Origin: Torpedo marmorata
Lineage: Eukaryota
DNA: 64,000 nucleotides
NCBI GenBank assembly: GCA_977017645.1
Contig: OZ360243.1
Span: 35,216,001-35,280,000 of the forward strand
Direction of reading: 5' to 3'
Shown here: piece by piece, positions 1-45,603 of the stretch
How positions within the stretch are numbered: the stretch's first letter is position 1
Layout: each line of letters starts with the position of its first letter
Notes under the pieces: generated by a model
The model's database searches: none
Told to the model about the DNA's origin: nothing
The model's input: only the letters and a program-made list of their open reading frames with translations
Translations under genes and position numbers: made by a program

Positions 1-157
1 AATAAAAAATTCCATTCTAATCTATCAAATGCTTTTTCTGCATCTAATGTTATCACCAACGGCAAATCTTGTTTCCTTTTTTACAAATTAATTAAACTTA
101 TTAATCTTGCTATATTATCTTTCGAATATCTATTTTTAATAAATCCTGCTTGATCAC
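1..157 (-). mobile_element. L1/Tx1-type LINE ORF2 (RT) fragment, continues off the left edge
   Basis: Minus strand reads QAGFIKNRYSKDNIARLISL...LDAEKAFDRLEWNF, nearly the same as the L1 at 29221-29370. Confidence 0.85.
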
Positions 158-199
158 CCCTTTCCAGCCTTATCCCCATAACACTTAACTCCCCTGCCC

Positions 200-2709
200 A
201 CTAGAGTTTTCCACAGGACAATGGAGCACATCATAGAAGGCATAAATGGGGTACGTGTGTACATGGATGGCATGATCCTATGGGGATCCACACAAGAACA
301 ACACAACAAAAGGCTCATCAAAGTGCTACAATGCATCCAGAAGTATGGATTAAAGTTTGGTGTGAAGGAAATCACCTTTCTGGGAGATAAACTGTCAGAG
401 GCAGGTGTGGAGCCAGACAAGAGCAAGGTGAAAGCAATTTTAGAGATGCCCAGACCTACTGACAAAAAAGGCGTATTGAGCGTGCTGGGAATGATCAATT
501 TCATTGGTAAATTCATACCAAACCTGTCTTCCAAAACAATGTACCAAAGGAAGTTGTTACAGGACAAATGTGAATTCAAGTGGACAGACAACTACGAGGA
601 AGAATGGGGATGACTGAAGACCATTCTAACTACAGAACCAGTACTTTTGACGTTCTTTGATGCATCCAGAAGGTCGAAAATATCAATGGATGCTTCAAAA
701 GATGGAATAGGTGCCGTACCACTTCAGGTTGTGGGAGAGGATTGGAGGCCAGTAGCATATGCATCAAGGACGATGACAACATCTGAATGTCGATATGCAC
801 AGATCGAGAAAGAGTGTCTGGTCTGGTCTATGGACGAGAAATTTCACAGTTATGTGTATGGTCTACCAACATTCGTGGCAGAGACAGACCACAAGCCATT
901 AATAGCGATAATCAAGAAAAATTTCAGTGAAATGTCACCGAGAATCCAAAGACTGATGATGAAGCTACAAAGTTATGACTTTGAATTGGTGTACACACCA
1001 GGGAAAATTAATGTGTTAGCTGATGCGTTATCCAGGGCAACGATGCAGAGTGAAGCACACAATGAGAGTTCCACAGAGACAGATGTGAATCTCCACGTGA
1101 ATCTTATCACTGAATCTCTTCCCGTATCTGACATGAAATCCAAGCAGATAGCAGCTGAAACAGAAAAGGACACAGTTCTAAAGAAGGTAATCAGGAATCT
1201 GAATGAAGGATGGCCTAGAGGTGAATGTCAGCCATACTACAACACAGGAGCTGAGCTGAGTGTTGTCAATGGGCTTCTACTCAGACAGAGCAGAATTATC
1301 ATTCCTCAATCACCATGACAAGAGATGCTGAAAAGGGTGCATGAGGGGCATCTTGGAATGGAAAAATGCAAGAGGAGGGCCAGAACTGCTGTTTATTGGC
1401 CAGGGATAAACGCTGACATTGACAGAATGGTTTCCAGCTGTGAGACCGGTTTGAAACATCATTCAAAGCAGGCAAAGGAACCCATGATAATAACTGACTT
1501 ACCAGCCAAACCATGGCAGAAAGTTGGGACTAATCTGTTCTACATGGATGGAAATAATTACTTGCTGGTTATTGATTATCTATCGAACTATCCGGAGAAA
1601 GTGCTGCTTCCTAGCATGTCTGCTGCTTGTGTGATCAAATATATGAAATAGATCTTTGCAAAACATGGAATTCCTCAAATTGTCTACAGTGACAATGGAC
1701 CATGTTGTAGAGAATTCCAGACCTTTGCAGAAGAGTATGATTTTTGACATGTGACTTCAAGTCCTCTGCATCCACAATCAAACGGTAAAGCAGAGAAAGG
1801 AGTTCACATAGTTAAACAGTTGCTCAAGGAAGCACTAGACAGTGGCTCAGACCCGTATCTAGTTCTATTGAGTTACAGAGCTTCGCCACTTGAACATGGC
1901 ATGTCACCCGCTGAGCTTCTGATGGAACGTAGACTACGCACCACACTTCCCTACTCTGCAGACCCAAACAAGAACAGAGATGTCGAAGATGTCGAACGGA
2001 AACAAAAGCATCTGCATTGGAGTCAAAAAGCAAACTATGACAAGTCAGCAAGAAGCTTAGGGCCACTGGCACAACATGACGCAGTGAGACTCAGAGATTC
2101 CAACAATTGGGACAAAAAGGCTACTGTTCTGGAGAAAGTAAATCCAAGATCCTACACTGTCAGAACAGAGGATGGTCAAATACTGAGGAGGAATCGAAAG
2201 AGCCTGCTGAAAACACAAGAGATACTGCAGGAACAGACAGATGCAGAAGATTCAGCCTGCACAGCAACAGAGGAAATACCAACAGTGCTAGACAGTAGTG
2301 GACCAGCAGAGCCGACACAAGCACCTGTGTTAAGAAGATCCACACGTGTTATCAAAGTACCTGACAGACTGAATCTCTAAAAGAAAAAGAACTGCACACT
2401 TCAAAGTTTGTGCTGCTGATGTTTGTGTTTACGTTTGTGTTGAACTTTAAATTGAAAGAATACTGTATTAGTGTGTCATGTTGTTAGATTAAACATCTCA
2501 AGGAAAGGGGATGTAGTGATAGTGTGCTACCACTAGGAGGTCAGAGATGAGTTGTGTGGCAGCTGTTGCATCTTGGGTAGAATCAAGATGGATGCCTCCA
2601 CATGAGGTCTTGTCTGTGTGTGTTCTGTTCTTAGTGCTATTTGCTTTAGTTAATAAATGTAGTTTAAAAAGAACCCAAGTTTCTTTATTGTAATAGAAGA
2701 AACATCACA
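200..2709 (+). mobile_element. Ty3/Gypsy LTR retrotransposon, 5'-truncated and decayed pol (RT end, RNase H, integrase) with PPT and 3' LTR
   Basis: Broken ORFs 221-613 (VYMDGMI, FLGD), 647-1318 (DASKDGIGAV, YAQIEKECL, ETDHKPL), 1325-1651 (HEGHLG, YWPG), 1751-2380 (SPLHPQSNGKAE); purine tract AAGGAAAGGGGA at 2500-2511. Confidence 0.93.
2512..2709 (+). repeat. Short (~200 bp) 3' LTR of the Gypsy element
   Basis: Starts TGTAGTGAT directly after the PPT, contains AATAAA near 2652, ends CATCACA; right boundary inferred from TG...CA only. Confidence 0.7.
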
Positions 2710-2904
2710 TCAATGACTCATCCAAATGCTATTTATATGTGATGAAGGGTTCTGCCTCTCTCATTGTCTCAGGCAATGAGTACAAACACCTACCAGCCTC
2801 TTGGTGAAAAAACTCTTTCCTCATAGTGCATCTCATCCTTCTACCAATTACTTTAAATCTGTGACCCTGATTTTTGACCCCCCCAGGAAAATAAGTCCTT
2901 ATTT

Positions 2905-3230
2905 AGTTTCAGATTTCAGATCTATTGTCAGAGTACATACATGACATCACATACAACCCTGAGATTCTTTTTACTGTGGGTGAGGGAAACTGTACGTAAC
3001 GTACACATGTAAACAAATAAAGAAATGTAAACAAACTGACTTTGCAATGCATAGAGGAAAAAAAAACAATAAAGTGCAAAAGTAAGAGTCCTTAAATGAG
3101 TCCCTGATTTAGTTTGTTGTTGAGGACTCTGATGGTGGAGGGGTAGCAGCTGTTCCTGAACCTGGTGGTGCGAGTCTTGTGGCACCTATATCTTTTTCCT
3201 GATGGCAGCAGCGAGAACAAAGCGTGTGCT
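2905..3230 (-). mobile_element. Rex1/Babar-type LINE 3' end
   Basis: Minus strand encodes the LLPSGKRYRCHKTRTTRFRNS C-terminal motif; (TTTCAGA)-type tail; same subfamily as 25328-26335. Confidence 0.8.
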
Positions 3231-3617
3231 CTCAGTGCCATTTATGATTTTTATCCTGCTCAATTAAATCGCCCCTCAGTCTCTTTTGATCCAACGTAAA
3301 ACTATTCCAGACGATCCGATCTTTTTTTAAAATCTTGGCAACATCTTTGTAAGTCTCCTCTACTTCCTCTTCAAGAAAATGCAGATGTATGAATCAGGAT
3401 AGGAGTAGTCCATTTGCTCTCTCAAACCTTAACAAGGTACCACAATTGCAATCCTTCCTGCTCCAAGGAACATTTCACCGCCTTGCTTATTATGAACGCA
3501 TTTAATTCTGTTTCCATTTCCCCTTGAGGAAGAGAGTTCCAAAAATTCACAATCCTTTGATAGAAAAAGAATCATATCTTTGACAATAACAATGAGGAAA
3601 AACAGTCTCTCCTCATC

Positions 3618-4030
3618 TCAGAATCTGAATTTATTGTCATTATCAAGTCATGAAATTCGGTGTTTTGCGGCAGCATCATAGTGCAAACATTCATATTATA
3701 ACCATCTTACGACATTACTATAAAAAATATATAAATAATAGTGCACGAAAATTAAGGCAGTGTCTTATTCAGGAATCTGATGGCAGCGGGGAAGAAGCTG
3801 CCCTTGTGCCGTTGAGTGCTCGTCTTTAGGCTCCTGTACCTTTTTCCTGATGGTAGCAGAGTGAAGAGGGCATGGCCTGGGTGGTGGGGGTCTTTGAGGA
3901 TAGAGGTTGCTTTTTTAAGACACCGCCTCATGTAGATGTCCTCGATGGAGTGAAGTCTGGTGCCTGTGATGTCACAGGCCGAGTTAACAACCCTCTGGAG
4001 TTTATTCTTGTCCTGAGAGTTGGGGCCTCC
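3618..4030 (-). mobile_element. Rex1/Babar-type LINE 3' end
   Basis: ORF 3752-4084 ([18 protein letters not shown]...[11 protein letters not shown]) near-identical to 59745-60177. Confidence 0.9.
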
Positions 4031-4524
4031 CAAGACCCCAAAGGACCTTGTAGGTTTCCATAGAGCTGCCTCTTGCTGTTCCAAAATTTAAAGCAGTACC
4101 TAAATTCCAGCTGTTTGTTTTCGAAGGATAAATTTAAAAAGAGCCTGGCTGTCTAGCTTAGATTAATAGGATAATCACAGTTTATTGATATAATTCATGA
4201 GATCTCATTAATCACAATGACTGGCAGATTGAAAAGCCTTGTCAAATCTCAGAGTTCTTTAATACGGAAATGACCTTTTCCACTTCAAACATTTCTAACC
4301 TTAATGAAACTGGTTTAATGAGCAAGCCTGTTAACGTACACTCGACCAAACAGCTAAATCTACTTCCATGTAGCCACAGGCACAATTGGATCAACTATTA
4401 AATGTCCGCATAGGATCCTAATGGGGCAATAGATACTGAAGTTTGTTTGTAGTCATTAGCCCTTTTTATGGTGCAACCCCACAATAAAGAAGGCTCAATA
4501 AAAAAAATAAAAAGGTGAACTTAC

Positions 4525-4989
4525 TTTTTATAGTGACGACCTATATGACGTTTCCAGCATTGTCTTTATGCTGAGCTGTGTCGGGAGCCGGCTTCCCGAT
4601 TTGAGGGAGGCGGGGCGAGTGGTGCAGTAGCGCCGCCCATCGCTGTGAAGTCAAACATACGCGCCGAGCAATGGCCGTCTTCGTTACCCATAATCCCCCA
4701 CGCAGCTGGAACCGCTCTTTCAGTGCCAGCGCCAGCACCAGGGAAATGCAGAGTGGTTCCAGCTGCGTGGGGGATTATGGGTAACGAAGATGGCCATTGC
4801 CATATAGATCAACTCTCCTGGGTCGCAGGCTGATGGCGTCATCGCGACGTCATCAGACCTCCCATTGCCAGATGCTTTAAGCTGCTTTCTTTTTATGGAG
4901 GAGGTGGAGAGATTCTCTCCACCTCTGTGTCTACCTCCTAGGCGTTTCGGAGTACGCCTTGCCAATCCGCCATCGGACTTTTTATGAAG
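4525..4989. promoter_or_regulatory. CpG-rich putative bidirectional promoter with divergent first exons
   Basis: CpG-dense segment with no repeat motifs I recognise; GC box GAGGCGGGGC 4607-4616; two ZNF143/Staf-like sites; CRE-like TGACGT at 4546 and GACGTCA at 4846; YY1-like AAGATGGC; plus donor AAG|GTAAGT at 4989/4990; minus donor AAA|GTAAGT at 4525/4524. Confidence 0.65.
4668..4800. repeat. 51-bp inverted repeat (49/51 match) with 31-nt spacer
   Basis: 4668-4718 is the reverse complement of 4750-4800 except at 4677/4791 and 4714/4754. Confidence 0.97.
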
Positions 4990-5028
4990 GTAAGTGAGGT
5001 GACTTAAAGACAGAAATGTTCTGTTTTT

Positions 5029-6860
5029 TAAAATATTTTATTTAAAATTTTAAATCACAAAATACATAAAATAAAATATGAAATTATCAAAATATTTGTG
5101 AAACATTTTCACCCCCCCTGCCACCCTCCCCTCCCCAACCCTCCCAACCCCACTAATCTAATAAAAAAAAAAAATAAAAAATAAAAAGAAAAAAGAAAAA
5201 AAAAGAAAAAGATAGAGTAAGGAGAATGCCAATCTAAAAACATACATCTATAAACTAATTATATTGTGGAGGTCAAGTATGCCAATAGATCCGATGTCCA
5301 GAGATCTTCAAATCCTTAAACCAACAACTTTCATATATGGGCTCCAAATTTTTTAAATGAAATGATATTTATTACGTAAATTATAGGTAATTTTTTCAAG
5401 TGGTATACATGAACGAAGTTCTGCAAGCCATCTTTCTAACCCTAAATCTAGATCAGATTTCCAAGTAATAGCAATACATTTCTTTGAAACAGCTAAAGCA
5501 ATTTGCAAAAATTCTATTTGATACATATTTAATTTCATCTTAATACTAAATTTTCTAATATCTCCAAACAAAAATATCATAGGATCCATTGGAAATGTAA
5601 TCTTAAATACTTTATCTAAAATTTTTTTAACTTTCAACCAGAAATCATAAACTTTTGGACAAAACCATGTAGAATGTACAAAAGAACCTTCCTCTTTATT
5701 GCATCTAAAACATAAACCTGATAATGTCGGATTAAATTTCTTTAATTTTTTAGGTGTTAAATATAATTGATGAAAAAAATTGTATTGTACTAATCTATAT
5801 CTAACATTAATAATCTTCGTCATACTTAATTTACATAATTCTTTCCAATGATTTTCATCTATTGTTACATTCAAATCTAATTCCCATTTTAATCTTGATT
5901 TATGAATTTCTACTTTAGAAGTTTTCCTCTGAAACAATTTATACATTTGAGAAATAAATTTATTTACATCTCCTTTAGTAACTAATAATTCTAATTCATT
6001 CTGTCTTGGTAAGATCAAACTATAACCTAATTTCTCAATCAAGAATGCTCTAATTTGATAATAAGCAAAAAGTGTATTATCCAATATATTGAATTTATCT
6101 TTCATTCTTTGAAAAGTAATAAATTTCCCAGCTTCAAAACAATCATTTATTTTCTTAATTCCTTTTTGAAACAAAATTTTAAATAATTGATTATTAGTAG
6201 TAAATGGAATAAGTTCATTTTGATATAAAGGCATCCTTGGAGAAATCATTCCTTTTCCTCCTATTTCCTTATCCGTCTTATTCCATATTTCTAACAAATG
6301 TTTAAGGATAGGAGAATTTTTCCTTCTTGTTGATATTAATTTAGAATCCCATTTATAAATAACTTCTTCTTTGGAATCTTCTCCTATATTATTTAATTCT
6401 ATTTTAATCCAAGCAGAAGATTTAGTTGGATCAAAAAGTTCATTAACAAATTTTAATTGAGCTGCTTTATAATAATTTTGGAAATTCCAAGTTAATTTTT
6501 CTATACCTACTCTTGCTAACTTTCCTTTCCATAAAAAATTTCTAATACTTGAATTTAAGTCTTTAAAAATTTTTTGAGGAATTTCATAAGGAATTGATTG
6601 GAAAAGATATTGAATTCTTGGAAAAACATTCATTTTAATACAATTTACCCTTCCCATTAAAGTTATAGATAAATCTTTCCAATTTTCTAAATCCTTTTTT
6701 ATTTTCACAAATAATGGTAGATAATTTAATTTATATAAATTAGCCAATTTTGTATCAATCCTTATTCCCAAATATTTAATTCCTCTTTTGCCCATTTAAA
6801 TTGTGTAATTTCTTTACACTTTCTACAATCCCCTTGTGATAATGTCATAATTTCACTTTT
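5029..6860 (-). mobile_element. 5'-truncated L1/Tx1-type LINE (ORF2 C-terminal part and 3' UTR)
   Basis: ORF 5353-6795 (IKYLGI, GRVNCIKMN, CFRC..HSTWFC zinc knuckle); TSD AATGTTC(T/G)GTTTTT at 5015-5028 and 6861-6874. Confidence 0.95.
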
Positions 6861-7048
6861 AATGTTCGGTTTTTACAGTCGTTTTCTTTGCACTATAAAA
6901 GGGGCTATTAACTCTATTGCAGACTCAGAATGCAGGACTGACACAGATCAGATTCTCTCCTCTGGTTCTTTAAAAAATGTATGTATCTTCAATACATCCC
7001 TGCATTGAGTCCTCTTGTACATTCTACTTCCTGCAATTGCATTGCTTA

Positions 7049-7664
7049 CACTGGACAGCATATTTTTTCAAAAAGGTTTGCATCCTGAAAAAAATGGAGA
7101 TTATGATAGACAACTTCAAACTGAACACAAATATAATTTCAGATTTGCTGTATCACGTAGGAAGTTTGGGAAACATGAAATTAACTTTTATTGAATTTAG
7201 CATGTTGAATCGCATAATGATGCTGACACTTTGTGTTAGTTCAACTGACCTGAAAATGTTTTGCCGCTGATTTTCGTTTATACTCAGCATCTGACACCCC
7301 TCGTGTCAGTGTCCAACAATAGTTGGCCAGCATTGATGGATTCCAGTTGCCCTGATACTGCTTTTCCATGGTTGTAATGTCCTGGTGAAACCTTTCACCT
7401 CGTTCGTCACTGTTGGCACCAAGATCAGCAGGGAAGAAGTCCAAATGCGAATGCAGAAAATGAATTTTCAATGACATGTTGCACTTTGTGGTTTTGTATG
7501 CTTGAAGTAGAATTAAAATATGTCATGATATCACAAAAAATAGTTTATATTTAAAAAAACGGTATGTGATATGAAAATTTTAAGGTGATTTTCATGATCA
7601 GCAGCCCAAAATCCATAAAATACACCCAAAAGTGTTCAGGAAGCAGAACTTTCGTTGTCCAGCG
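7049..7664 (-). mobile_element. Non-autonomous DNA transposon with a Chapaev3-like transposase C-terminal remnant
   Basis: ORF 7241-7477 MSLKIHFLHSHLDFFP...DERGERFHQDI; termini CACTGGACAGC / GTTGTCCAGCG form an imperfect TIR; family assignment from recall of the motif. Confidence 0.7.
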
Positions 7665-8207
7665 ATAATGGGTCAGCAAGATTGTCTCTTAAATGTGCAT
7701 GTTCAAGCTGAAAAAGAGGTTTCTGAAGCAGTGTTTGTATTTTGGTAAACGTTACTTTCATCTAAAGTATGATTTGCGCACTGAGGAAGATGCTTGCTTA
7801 TTTGAGGCAATGCCGATCTCCAGATTAAGCAACAGCCCTCTGATTGTATGTGACACAGGGTCTTCATTAGACCACAGTGCCATCCCATGTAAGGGAAGGG
7901 GTTATGTTCCTCAAAAGCCTGTATTGTGATTTTCTGTAATGCAATCCCTTGATAAGAATTGACAAAAATTTGTTGTTTCTTTTACATTTTGTGTTTATTT
8001 AATTTTTCTCTCATAAATTCCATCTGACAAAATCTTTATTCTGTATTTCAAATCTTTTGAGTGTTTTCTGAATTCGAATAGGGCTAATTTCCATTACCTG
8101 AACTGCTGTAATGTGGAAGTGCACTTTATAATGGAACTTCCCCTGTTGAATGATTAGATTTCATCATTCTAACTGGCTTTCCCATTGCATCACATGTACT
8201 CTAACAG

Positions 8208-8331
8208 GCAGATGTACAAACAGCACTTACGAAGTCCAGTGCAAAAACCAAATCCCTCAATGGTCTACGCCCTTGAGTACACACTTCCTGTGCACATTTT
8301 TACACAGCAGCAGGAGTTAAATCAAAGTTAG
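8208..8331 (+). other. Candidate internal exon of a plus-strand, probably non-coding transcript
   Basis: CTCTAACAG acceptor and TAG|GTATGC donor; splice signals only, no recognisable protein. Confidence 0.25.
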
Positions 8332-8725
8332 GTATGCAAACTTGGCATGGATTTACAGACAAGATTAGTTGATCTTGCCTGCTGATTCTCCAAAGCCCTT
8401 GTATCATGAGGATGTGCCTGGATTGGGAGAGTAATCTCCAAACAGCAGTTTGATGTTGATACTGTATGGTCATTAAAACCCTCCCTCTCCAACAACACCA
8501 GAGACACATTTGTAATCATTCCTGGGTCAGTTACATATGTCTCATGCATGTGATGGATCAGAGGTGGCTGGGACTGATCAGATGTAGTCCTCAGTATTGT
8601 ATTGTGTCTGGACCCCTAGTATTCTCATAGAAACAAGTCAGATATCAAGGTCTCCACTAGACATAGGGAACCCTGGTTTTCAAGGGATATTGGCGATCTG
8701 GTTAAGAAGAAAAGGGAGGTGTATA

Positions 8726-8767
8726 TTTTGTGATTTAAAAGATTAAATAAAATAATTTTTTTTTAAA
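8726..8767 (+). mobile_element. ~42-bp L1 3' tail insertion inside the CR1
   Basis: TTTTGTGATTTAAAA..AATAAAA matches the L1 3' end at 31550-31590; 22-bp TSD AAGAAGAAAAGGGAGGTGTATA at 8704-8725 and 8768-8789. Confidence 0.85.
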
Positions 8768-9784
8768 AAGAAGAAAAGGGAGGTGTATAGCAAGTATAGG
8801 CAACAAGGAGCTAATGAGGTGCTTGAAAATTACAGAAAATGCAAGAAAATACTCAAGAAGGAAATCAGGAAGGTAAAAAGAAGACATGAGGTTGCTTTGG
8901 CAGATAATGTGAAGGTAAACCCGAAGGGTTTCTACAAGTATATTAAGAGTAAAAGGATAGTAAGGGACAAAATTGGTCCCCTAGAGGATCAGAGTGGTCA
9001 ACTATATGTGGAGCCTCACGTAATGGGGGAGATCTTAAACATTTTTTTTGCATCAGTATTTACTCAGGAAACTGACATAGTATATAAGGAAGGAAGGGAA
9101 ACAAACAGAAGTGTCATGGAACATATGGAGATTAAGGAGGAGGAGGTGCTTGCTGCCTTACAGCAAATAAAGGTAGATAAATTCCCAAGGCCAGATATGA
9201 TACTCCCTCGGACCTTGAGGGAGACAAGTGTAGAAATTGCAGGGCCCTGGCAGATATATTCAAAATGTCCTTAGCCATGGGTGAGGTGCCAGAGGATTGG
9301 AGAGTAGCTCATGTTGTCCCGTTGTTTAAAAAGCCTCCAAAAATAAACCAGGTAATTATAGGCCTGTGAGCCTGACGTCAGTAGTAGGTAAATTATTGGA
9401 AGGAGTTCTGAGAGATAGGATATATAGGTATTTGGACAGCCAAGGGCTGATTAAGGACAGTCAGCATGGCTTTGTGCGTGGTAGGTCATGTTTAACTAAT
9501 CTTGTAGAGTTTTTCGAGGAGGTTACCAAGAAGATAGATGAAGGAAAGGCTGTGGATGTTGTCTACATGGACTTTAGTGAAGCCTTTGACAAGGTCCCAC
9601 ATGGAGAGGTTGTAAACTGGATTCAAAATTGACTGTGTGGGAGAAAACAGAGAGTGGTAGTGGATGGTTGCTTCTCAGACTGGAGGCCTGTGACTAGTGG
9701 TGTGCCTCAGGGATCTGTGTTGGGACCATTGTTGTTTGTTGTCTATATCAATGATCTGGTTGATAATGAGGTAAATTTGATCAG

Positions 9785-10197
9785 CAACATCTCATTTTCC
9801 GTCTAGGCACTCTCCAGCCAGATGGCATTAACATTGACTTTTCTGCTTTCCACTAAACCTGCTTGTCATTTCCTTCCCCTCCCCCCTGTCCTGTCCTTCC
9901 AGTTTTTCTCCACTCACCCAGCCATCCCTCCTCCCACTCTTTGCTGCTGTCCCCTCCCTCCTTTCTCCACCTATCATCTCCTGCCTTTGTCACTCCCCCC
10001 CCCCCACCTTCCCCCCTCACTCTTTTGTTCGGACGCCTGCCGGCATTTTCTTATACTTTGATGAAGGGCTCAAGCCCAAAATGTCGGTTTTGTATTTCTA
10101 CCTTTGCTACTTAAAATACACTGTTTGACCTGCTGAGTTTCTCCAGCATTTGTGTTTTTACTTCAACCACGGTGTCTACAGATTTTCGTGTTTTACT
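9785..10197 (+). mobile_element. Penelope-like element 3' end (pseudo-LTR) inserted in the CR1
   Basis: [20 protein letters not shown] (GIY-YIG C-terminus), pyrimidine-rich tract and pLTR shared with 28319-28907. Confidence 0.9.
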
Positions 10198-11074
10198 TTT
10201 CAAAGATAGGAGGCGTTATGGACAGCAAGGAAGATTTTCACAGTTTGCAGAGGGATCTGGACCAATTGGGAGAATGGGCGAAAAAATGGCAGATGGAGTT
10301 TAATGCAAACAAGTGTGAGATTATGCATTTTGGAAAGACAAACTAAGAAAGGACATACACAGTAAATGGTAGGGCACTGAGGAGTGTGGAGGAACAAAGG
10401 TATCTGGGAATACAGATACATTGTTCCCTGAAGGTGGCGTCGCAGGTGGACAGGGTTGTAAAGAAAGCTTTTGGCATCTTAGCCTTTATAAATTAAAGTA
10501 TTGAGTATAGGAGTTGAGATGTTATGGTGGGGTTATATAAGACATTGGTGAGGCCAAATTTGGAGTATTGTGTGCAGTTCTGGTTGCCTAACTACAGGGA
10601 GGATATCAATAAGATTGAAAGAGTTCAAAGAAGATTTACTAGGATGTTTCCAGGTCTTCAGGAGTTGAGTTACATGGAAAGATTAAACAGGTTAGGACTT
10701 TATTCCTTGGAGCGAAGAAGAATGAGGGGAGATTTGATAGAGGTTTACAAGATTATGAGAGGTATAGACAGAGTGGATGCGAGTAGGCTTTTTCCACTTA
10801 GATTGGGGAGATAAATACGAGAGGTCATAGTTTTAAGCTGAAAGGGGAAAGGTTTAGGGGGAAAGTTCTTCACTCAGAGAGTGGTGGGAGTGTGGAATGA
10901 GCTGCCATCTGATGTGGTGAATGCGGGCTCGATCTTAAGTTTTAAGAATAAATGGATGGGAGAGGTCTGGAGGGTTATGGAATGGGAGCAGGTCAATGGG
11001 ACTAGCGGAATAATGGTTGACACAGACTGGAAGGGCCGAAAGGCCTATTTTCTGTGCTGTAGCATTCTATGGTT

Positions 11075-11654
11075 CTACATCAGAGTGACTGGGCGCAGAC
11101 TGGGAGATCGCTTTGTTGAGCGCCTCGGCTTTGTCTGCTGCAATAGCGTGGATCTCCCAATGGCCACCCATTTCAATTCCCTATGCCATTCACTTGCTGA
11201 CATGTCTATCCATGATCTCATGCACTGCCAGACTGAGACCACCTGCAAATTGGAGGAACAACACCTCATCTTCTGACTGGGCACCCTCCAACCGGATGGC
11301 ATTAATATCGACTTCTCTGTGTTTCGTTAAACCACCCCCCCCCTCCTCACTTCTTCCTCTGTCACCTTCCCCATCTCTGTTTCTCTCCCTTTTCCCTGTC
11401 TCCCCTTATCATATCCAATTAACACCTTTTGTGGGTCTGGAATCCTCCCCCAGCCAGCATTGTCTCTATTGTAAGATTTCCTGTTTTATGCTTATTCTGC
11501 TTATTCTTTGCTTATTACCTGAAGAAGGGTGCAGGCCCAAACGTCGGCAATATGTCTTTCTCTCCTATGGATGCTGAAAGAGCGTCTGAGTTCCTCCAGC
11601 ATTTCGGTGTGTTTTTAACTACAATCACAGCGTCTGCACACTTCTGTGTTTCAC
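11075..11654 (+). mobile_element. Penelope-like element 3' part (GIY-YIG endonuclease remnant and pLTR)
   Basis: YIRVTGRRLGDRFVERL...PMATHFNS...KLEEQHLIF; similar to 45604-46251. Confidence 0.88.
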
Positions 11655-12049
11655 ACAGACGTCAATAAGGAAATATCTCTGCAATAGGATGGATGTAACA
11701 TTTCCAAACTGGTGACCAGGAGTGTTGCAACCATTGGTAGCAGCAGAATTCCACCACAGACTGTTATTATCTCCCCATCAAGCTCAGGCACCAACCTGGA
11801 TTCAATGAGCAACAAGGAGTGTTGAGGTGCACATTAAGAACAACATGAGAGGTACCCAAACATGGATTCCAAATGTGAAGAAGCTAGTCACGTGGCTCTG
11901 CATATTGGTGATGATGGCATCATGTGAAGGTAACTGAAACAATATCCTGAAACCATAATCACCATCTTATCCCTTACTTACAATGATTTAGCCATTTGGA
12001 TCCGTGCCCTGGGGAGCAAAGCCATTTGTCAACTTCTCCTTCTCCTTAT

Positions 12050-43472: not shown

Positions 43473-44627
43473 TCAATTGCGCTTTTTAAACGATTTTATT
43501 ACAGTCTCTATTTTCACTTTGTCCCATGCCTTGAGCACGAAGTCACACAGCACATCAAGTGATGCAGCACGCATTGCCCCGCCTTTTCTAAATGATTTTT
43601 CTGCACTCGTCATCCATGTATTCCACTCTTCACGCACATGGTCTTTGAATGGCTTGTTCAAGCAGACATCGAGAGGTTGCAATATAGACGTCAAACCACC
43701 CGGGATAACCGCCATGTAAGTATTATGTTGTACTAATCTACTTTTAGTGTTCTCAGTTAAGTGGCTACAAAACATATCCCAGACCAGCAAACTCCGTTCC
43801 TTGCGTAAACCGCCTGGCCGCCTGTTCCACACATTGTCTATCCATAGTTTTACACCATTTTTATCCATCCATCCTTTTTCATGAAAATGTACAAAAATAC
43901 CTGCTGGGAAACTTATTTTAGGTTTAAATTTGCGCTTGAAGATTACCATGGGTCTTAACTTTGTCCCGTCGGCCGTGCACGATAACACCACGGTAAACCT
44001 GGTCCTTTCATGTCCTGTACTCCTCGTTTGCCCAGTTTTCACACCTTTCCATTCCACTGTTCTATTGCCTATCATGTCAAAATTCATGGGGGTTTTGTCC
44101 ATGTTTCCAATATTTGCCAATGCAAACTTGTGTTTCTGCCGGTTACGTAAAATAAACTGGTGAAAACTTACAACTTTATGATCAAGATCTTTTGGTAGTT
44201 TCTGAGCAATTTTAGTTTTTTGTCGTAAAACCAGATTTTTCCTGTTCATGAAACGGTTGCACCAGCCTACTGTAGCTTCAAAATCATTACTGAGTTCTGG
44301 GTGCGACTTTGCCCACTTCAGTGCAAATGTTCTTATTTTATTTCGGGTGACAATGTAGCAATCTTGCCTCTGTTCACGTACCCATGCTGCGACATGATTT
44401 TCCAACTCTGGCCAACGAGTGATTCCTCTTCTCATCGAACATTGCCTTTTTGGTATTTTTCTTAAAGTATCTTCTTTCATCCTCCAATCTCTTACCAACT
44501 TCTCGTATATATCAAATTTTCTTGCAGCAGCACAGTTGTTGGTTTTCTTGGCCATTTCTATAACTTTTAATTTAAAACTTGCCTCATACTTTCGTTGTTT
44601 CAATTGAGCCTCCATGATAACAATCAC
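43473..44627 (-). CDS. pogo transposase (Brinker-like DBD, CENP-B-type HTH, DD35D), acidic C-terminus shifted out of frame
   Basis: 384 aa: YEASFKLKVI, RWPELE, GWCNRFM, NMDKTP, LVWDMF, LQPLDV; 35 residues between second and third Asp; AIDGTEDDLLWD continues in another frame. Confidence 0.85.
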   Translation of the reverse strand: MIVIMEAQLKQRKYEASFKLKVIEMAKKTNNCAAARKFDIYEKLVRDWRMKEDTLRKIPKRQCSMRRGITRWPELENHVAAWVREQRQDCYIVTRNKIRTFALKWAKSHPELSNDFEATVGWCNRFMNRKNLVLRQKTKIAQKLPKDLDHKVVSFHQFILRNRQKHKFALANIGNMDKTPMNFDMIGNRTVEWKGVKTGQTRSTGHERTRFTVVLSCTADGTKLRPMVIFKRKFKPKISFPAGIFVHFHEKGWMDKNGVKLWIDNVWNRRPGGLRKERSLLVWDMFCSHLTENTKSRLVQHNTYMAVIPGGLTSILQPLDVCLNKPFKDHVREEWNTWMTSAEKSFRKGGAMRAASLDVLCDFVLKAWDKVKIETVIKSFKKRN

Positions 44628-45603
44628 CTCCAGCCAACGCCCAGCAGCTCAATCAGCGCAATCGTTGTGGGTCGAACTATACGCCGGTCAACGCCCAGTA
44701 GCGCAATCATCGCGATTTTTGGGGGTCGACTTATACGCCGGTCAATGCGCAACATCTCAGACATCACGATTTTTGGGGGTCGACTTATACGCCGGATATA
44801 CAATAAAACCATTAAAATGAGGCTGAAAAAGGGGGGGTCGACTTATCTGCCGGTCGACTTATACACCAAAATATACGGTACTTTGGCTCTGATTTTAATT
44901 CACAAATGGAACAGTTTTGTTCCAAGCTGAGGTAGACAAGAAACTTGCTCATTGTCATGTAAGACACGGGAGATTTTAATTAATCAGCAAAGGCCCTTCC
45001 AGTCTCCAGCAAGAGGTATCAGCTACACAATCATCTTTAGATGGATTTTATGCCAAATAGATGGTTTGGAACGTGTCAGGGAAAGAGGGAGAGGGAGCAC
45101 AGACCAAAGGTTTCAGCGTGGATTGCACATAGAGAAACAACATCAAAACAACGAACAGCTTTCCTTTCTGACTGCCTCACACCCAGGAACAATTTGCTGT
45201 TAGGTTGGTCAAGGTGGATAAGAAGAAACAACTTCAAGAGCTTGTAGACAGGATGTAAACTATCATGTGAAAACTTAAAAAAAGAAAGTCCCCAGCAGGT
45301 ATCCACTCAGTCACTCAAAGCAAGGTAAAATTACAGCCTCTGGGAAAACAGCAAGGCTGTTTTCATTTGTCCACCTCTCTGCCTTCTACCTGGCAACCTC
45401 ACCAAATTAGTGCACTGTTTGTTCTATAAAATATTTCAAATTAAATAGATAAAAAGACAAATTCATATCTAGTACTTTACACTTGTATTTTAAATTTTGC
45501 AGAATATTTTAATGTTTTTTTTTAATCCAAGCTGTTCCATCACAGTGATTTTTTTTTCAATTAATAAATCCTACTTGTTCCCAGTTAATTGCTTTGATAG
45601 GAG

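Follow-up and report, generated by a model that had tools for sequence, protein, structure and literature searches.

Our analysis shows that the near-perfect inverted repeat in the window, by which we mean the whole 64-kb stretch of DNA analysed, sits within a Harbinger-like MITE of about 600 bp that has been split by a LINE and has decayed at its CpG positions (Table 1). With a probability of roughly two in three, the repeat is internal cargo of this high-copy MITE family, common also to hAT-type and TA MITEs, which likely came from the promoters of host C2H2 zinc-finger genes, was likely folded once by template switching, and is likely inert in the window copy. The direct evidence consists of the carriers with their ends and TSDs, the junction that they have in common and a single-arm host-type unit.

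Results

The inverted repeat and its predicted factor sites

A preliminary description of this DNA had reported a near-perfect 51-bp inverted repeat, and this geometry held, with arms complementary at 49 of 51 positions (96%) around a 31-nt spacer. The RNA fold of the repeat reaches -111 kcal/mol (z -16.7), a value equalled by none of 200 shuffles, and the minus-strand RNA folds with a z of -16.5. Both mismatches are C>T changes at CpG and the majority sequence of nine sister copies has perfect arms, in agreement with CpG decay, one of the two explanations that had been offered for them. It had also been stated that there is no second copy; none was seen in positions 1-12,000, and a search of the whole window for the Staf consensus gave no match beyond the two in the arms. 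An Rfam scan of the window at the gathering score gave no matches.

Each arm carries a 9-mer which we take to be YY1-like, and a putative Staf/ZNF143-type site; the two Staf/ZNF143-type sites are opposed, as had been noted. The Staf consensus, used in the version given in the preliminary description, has exactly two matches in the 64-kb window, one per arm, against a mean of 0.00 in 100 shuffles. Furthermore, the predicted arm site agrees with the SBS description in the consulted part of PMC3082894, having CCCR at positions 3-6 and C at position 12 of 18 bp. By our own count it is identical to the SBS1 probe at 13 of 18 positions, and the SBS2 extension, as described in the part of PMC3627581 consulted, is absent.

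Two further sequence features were noted beside the repeat. A second small hairpin-like stretch, consisting of a purine-rich run and then its complement, lies inside the family-A element at 4897-4942; it is retained in most aligned copies and is shorter in L003 and L011. Additionally, the repeat in family A is flanked on either side by a donor-like GTAAGT hexamer facing away from it (4524 on the minus strand and 4990 on the plus strand), and family B has one just right of the repeat. These hexamers may be due to chance or may be other captured first exons.

Table 1. Coordinates in the window of the inverted repeat, its predicted sites and the element that encloses it.
Feature	Position	Strand	Remarks
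Left 3-bp TSD (ATT)	4455..4457		exact 3-bp TSD in 18/28 sister copies with both ends
Left part of ~605-bp non-autonomous Harbinger-like element (family A)	4458..5028	+	left TIR about 4458-4476
Left arm of inverted repeat	4668..4718	+	51 nt; shares homology with the single arm found in the host-type promoter unit
YY1-like 9-mer, left arm	4673..4681	-	from sequence; motif name assumed
Staf/ZNF143-type site 1 (putative), SBS1-like	4684..4702	+	CCCR at 3-6, C at 12; without upstream RRACTACAN
Spacer of inverted repeat	4719..4749	+	31 nt; colinear with host-type sequence past the arm; ends at the fold-back junction common to all carrier types
Right arm of inverted repeat, an inverted copy	4750..4800	-	51 nt; holds both CpG-type mismatches (4754, 4791)
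Staf/ZNF143-type site 2 (putative)	4766..4784	-	consensus match
YY1-like 9-mer, right arm	4787..4795	+	from sequence; motif name assumed
5'-truncated L1-like LINE inserted in the element	5029..6860	-	14-bp target duplication, 13/14 identical
Right end of family-A element	6861..6906	+	right TIR about 6888-6906
Right 3-bp TSD (ATT)	6907..6909		pairs with ATT at 4455-4457

The enclosing element

Family A, which was defined from the flanks of sister copies, exists in a form of about 605 bp and a form of about 900 bp. Its TIRs are imperfect, about 19 bp long, and begin like the ends of the full-length Harbingers L182, L195 and L196. TSDs were counted at 31 distinct loci, three of which, the window copy among them, lack paired ends inside the locus; in the copies with both ends the duplication is exact at 3 bp in 18 of 28 and at 2 bp in two, and none is exact at 4, 5 or 8 bp. 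The absence of a TSD that had been recorded earlier therefore applies to the ends of the arms but not to the enclosing element, which is flanked by ATT on both sides.

The LINE fragment that splits the window element is about 1.8 kb long and has a weak zf-RVT match below the cut-off. Compared with its sister copies, the window copy shows 12 transitions among 86 CpG bases and five changes among 517 other bases, a rate about 14-fold higher at CpG, and this pattern would fit methylated, decaying DNA. The window copy is probably an ordinary dead insertion. Contigs from three sequencing runs, which may or may not come from this genome, cover the element and speak for its presence only; depth in two of the three peaks on the arms of the repeat, and in run X1 both flanks of the host-type unit described below are matched by loose ends.

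Elsewhere in the window, the minus strand at 43473-44648 holds a 391-aa open frame that by eye resembles a pogo-type transposase and has short tandem repeats close to each end. No C2H2 finger was found in the 64 kb.

Copy number and carrier types

A 23-mer from one arm has 9,385 exact occurrences genome-wide and a control has none. A genome search with the 133 bp of the repeat gave 1,920 candidates, and all 40 that were scored, on 22 contigs, span the full length at 95-100%, which disposes of an assembly fold-back artefact, a possibility raised in the preliminary description.

Carriers were sampled from the first 100 listed matches of the 23-mer, corresponding to 83 loci in genome order, none of which lies beyond the first 62 Mb of a single contig. 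A second arm is present at 65 of the 83. Both ends and a TSD were found at 51 loci (28 TA-type, 15 of the 3-bp Harbinger type and eight of the 8-bp hAT type), both ends with an imperfect TSD at ten, one end at 17 and no end at five. Carrier ends are thus present at 78 loci; four more are carrier interiors and one is the host unit. Behind the 51 complete loci stand two TA-type families, families A (seven loci) and H2 (eight loci) with the 3-bp TSD, and three hAT-type families; family-A ends occur at ten of the 83. Many further hAT-type carriers with 8-bp TSDs were present in a second locus set. Elements of the hAT type have 8-bp TSDs and short TIRs starting with CAG, and those of the Tc1/mariner-pogo type have TA TSDs and TIRs; the hAT-type and TA-type labels used here were given by these TSD and TIR rules, which we assume to hold. 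Scaling the sample leads to a rough estimate of about 13,000 loci overall, some 7,800 of them having an exact arm.

Family A and seven other representative carriers have only the module of about 134 bp in common, and the other carriers have further patches in common among themselves. One TA-type carrier is nested inside a hAT element. In TA-type family 2 (L079, L083, L110, L121) the arms of the repeat reach about 100 bp, and hAT family B has a second, unrelated internal inverted repeat of about 150 bp (L070, positions 108-256 of the element). Fold-backs seem to be common in these MITEs.

Regarding the Harbinger partners, MITE H2 corresponds at 90-96% to the first 229-249 bp and the last 177 bp or so of the full-length Harbingers L182, L183 and L197. 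These full-length elements lack the module, indicating that the cargo was acquired. L182 encodes Myb and DDE_Tnp_4 in two convergent genes. The Harbinger copies at L182, L183, L187, L195, L196 and L197 measure about 3.6-4.7 kb, and some of them have 3-bp TSDs and both ends. An autonomous partner was thereby located for the sister family H2, and a search of 50 transposase loci out of 2,806 candidates (30 short, 20 of 10 kb) gave none with family-A ends.

The fold-back junction and the limits of the module

At the fold junction 51 of 59 two-arm copies, across every carrier type, have an identical triplet of letters or its CpG-decay forms, which points to a single fold-back. The junction coincides with a 2-bp GC compatible with the forward sequence as well as with the reversed arm. 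In addition, the MITE lineages carry different colinear pieces of the host-type unit (-28..+278, -37..+53, -22..+64 and -15..+53), a pattern that favours the host as donor. A minority of copies (3/24, 1/10, 1/9, 1/4 and 0/5 by family) have the spacer in the opposite orientation with respect to the carrier, which suggests later arm-to-arm recombination.

Arm-to-arm gene conversion was considered and rejected: two symmetric variants were found at 136 sites in 48 copies, against a shuffled mean of 6.7, part of one arm being fixed by the search pattern.

A single-arm unit ahead of zinc-finger genes

One of the 83 sampled loci (L135) has a single arm with its spacer. A second SBS-like site flanks it on one side; on the opposite side, at a distance of 130 bp, comes a splice donor and then a same-strand C2H2 exon. 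No TE end was found there. This host-type unit is multicopy and clustered, with 84 exact junction matches, the majority of them on small contigs or close to the ends of contigs. An inverted second arm is absent from all 30 host-type loci examined, and at 28 a splice donor follows about 130 bp downstream of the arm, the other two being single-arm elements that contain about 300 bp of the unit, one of them with a clear 8-bp TSD. When 18 donor-bearing loci were followed for 10-20 kb, same-strand arrays of at least three C2H2 fingers were found at eight, one finger at two and none at eight (one of which has an array on the opposite strand), compared with no C2H2 array in 29 control stretches of 10 kb. 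An intact 391-aa host product is a zf-C2H2 array according to Pfam, and KRAB is absent among its top 25 Pfam families. Most of the host copies are recent near-duplicates of one another, and across the module 14 of the 30 are identical. Observed/expected CpG is 0.62-1.04 in host-type units and 0.38 in the window, a measure that does not discriminate because MITE masters are also CpG-rich.

A one-letter variant of the site has 223 copies, and nine more host-type units were found with it, three of them with same-strand fingers within 8 kb. At eight of 20 variant loci the single arm stands in a second repeated context, which contains CCAAT and part of which recurs in H2. No gene was found near these eight loci, and the arm may therefore have had another source besides, or earlier than, the zinc-finger promoter.

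Several arrangements were observed around single arms. At L267-L272, L280 and L281 (contigs C79, C48 and C56) a repeated unit has paired single arms 870 or 1,508 bp apart with two CCAAT boxes and a GC box, and the open reading frames of L267 are LINE-derived in look; Rfam and tRNA scans of six single-arm loci, four of them of this type, gave nothing. At L245 (G000:C1:25161800-25171799) the first intron of a host-type unit contains a single-arm hAT-type carrier, only some hundreds of bases away from the promoter arm to which it is homologous. Lastly, a large clustered C2H2 zinc-finger family with near-identical promoter units, some frameshifted, occupies the start of C1 in G000, the end of C48, the start of C56 and many small contigs.

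Discussion

Origin of the module and alternative explanations

From the observations described above we infer the direction of capture, the order of transfers and the mechanism. A DNA transposon could have captured a piece of promoter by gap repair, and single-arm hAT-type carriers still exist. One fold-back at the 2-bp GC microhomology would then have produced the two outward-pointing putative Staf/ZNF143 sites, after which nesting, internal deletion and renewed template switching may have carried the module from one MITE master to another, each family being presumably amplified by its own transposase. The two arms point outward relative to the sense of the host unit, and family A lacks the exon and the donor. 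In this regard, the inverted duplication of a promoter module proposed in the preliminary description is likely right on origin, the arm being homologous to a promoter-like unit ahead of C2H2 genes, but wrong on place, as it would have happened once in a transposon ancestor. The further proposal, that a local duplication created a divergent promoter at this locus, lost its support with the finding of many dispersed copies with TSDs, which that description had itself named as evidence against it.

The opposite course of events, in which a transposon gave rise to the module and the zinc-finger family later co-opted a single arm as its promoter, seems unlikely to us. It would accommodate the near-identity of host and MITE modules, a tree without a root and the second, gene-less single-arm context, but not readily a host unit that extends on both sides, into the exon with its donor and into the second SBS-like site, with no TE end at L135; nor MITE lineages that break at different points within that unit, nor a host form that lacks the fold-back in all 30 loci. 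The tree was uninformative as a test of direction: it is unrooted, its long host branches are an artefact of non-homologous tails, and the single-arm hAT copies are 91-93% identical to a host copy, no more distant than host copies are from each other (84-96%). It is quite improbable that a functional divergent promoter arose here by local inverted duplication, or that this copy was exapted as one. Both Staf/ZNF143-type sites are intact, donor-like hexamers face outward, and a single SBS is enough for bidirectional reporter activity in human cells according to the part of PMC3082894 consulted; against this, thousands of copies are dispersed, CpG transitions far exceed other changes in the window copy, the element is LINE-split, and those open frames of at least 120 aa in the window that are recognisable by eye are of transposon type, an observation covering long frames only.

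Long near-perfect arms in many carriers could also mean that the hairpin is an independent MITE of about 130-150 bp, with the arms as its TIRs, which inserted separately into the masters of larger families. One copy (L039/L063) even stood solo at first look, but L063 is a LINE-interrupted hAT element with an 8-bp TSD (7/8). The outer limits of the hairpin vary by carrier (-15, -22, -14), no TSD was seen at its ends, and every sampled locus other than the host unit has carrier ends or is a carrier interior, which makes such an origin very doubtful. Lastly, the repeat might be the central bidirectional promoter of an autonomous Harbinger, located between transposase and Myb genes and retained in the MITE, an arrangement suggested by one copy about 250 bp 5' of a Harbinger transposase. 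This explanation is largely refuted and hardly credible, as that copy is an inserted hAT element, full-length Harbingers are without the module and the genes of L182 converge. The capture of a host promoter piece and its single fold-back within a transposon account best for these data.

Possible function and significance

A more speculative extension, which we consider rather doubtful, is that the double-ZNF143 palindrome acts as a selfish accessory: the piece of host zinc-finger promoter could recruit a housekeeping activator or open chromatin, boosting MITE mobilisation, and could have been kept for this through the Harbinger, hAT and pogo-type transfers. If true, about ten thousand latent divergent promoters and sources of hairpin RNA would have been seeded genome-wide. 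One folded and probably captured promoter piece at roughly 7,800 or more loci, in three superfamily types and with intermediates and a candidate source still present, makes two questions testable: by what route cargo passes from one DNA transposon to another that is unrelated, and whether non-autonomous elements spread better with host factor sites.

Comparison with known systems

Our literature search found no report of this case; Repbase and Dfam were outside the search, so the families may already be named there. The sources compared below are cited for the parts consulted.

Human bidirectional promoters contain Staf/ZNF143 sites (PMC3082894, PMC3627581), and ZNF143-bound MLT1J retroelements are a precedent for sites borne by TEs (PMC3627581). 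Like the human SBS, the site described here is 18 bp long, with CCCR at 3-6, C at 12 and the agreement with the SBS1 probe given above; it differs in that it has no RRACTACAN extension, its carrier is a DNA transposon and no gene pair lies beside the window copy. Non-autonomous PIF/Harbinger elements are described as having TIRs of 25-50 bp and a 3-bp TSD (PMC9179366). Family A resembles them in its TIRs, its 3-bp TSD, its ends similar to those of full-length Harbingers in this genome, and in being short, non-coding and high in copy number, but departs from that definition in its TIR of about 19 bp and its foreign interior.

The spread of factor sites by MITEs is known from Brassicaceae, where E2F sites were amplified and E2F binding was shown in vivo (Henaff 2014, as cited in PMC7329337 and PMC5950925). 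It has been suggested in review that factor binding at such sites may help transposition rather than gene regulation. Here too MITE families bear and spread a putative host factor site; the differences are a vertebrate host, a cargo of 70-300 bp with a candidate host source, an arrangement as a two-site palindrome, and sites predicted from sequence.

The module also behaves like a multicopy example of the Pack-TIRs of animals, which are mostly single-copy, with few copies in the multicopy cases, and for which template switching with short microhomology (median 2 bp) has been proposed, the multicopy cases having spread by transposition (Tan et al. 2021, PMC8277862). As in Pack-TIRs, a TIR transposon contains probably captured non-TE sequence, with the host-type unit as candidate parental locus. 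Unlike in Pack-TIRs, the cargo occurs in thousands of places, forms an inverted repeat and has one junction across three TSD classes; the parts of that account consulted describe no transfer between superfamilies. The scale, the fold-back and the single junction across three TSD classes set this case apart from those described in these sources.
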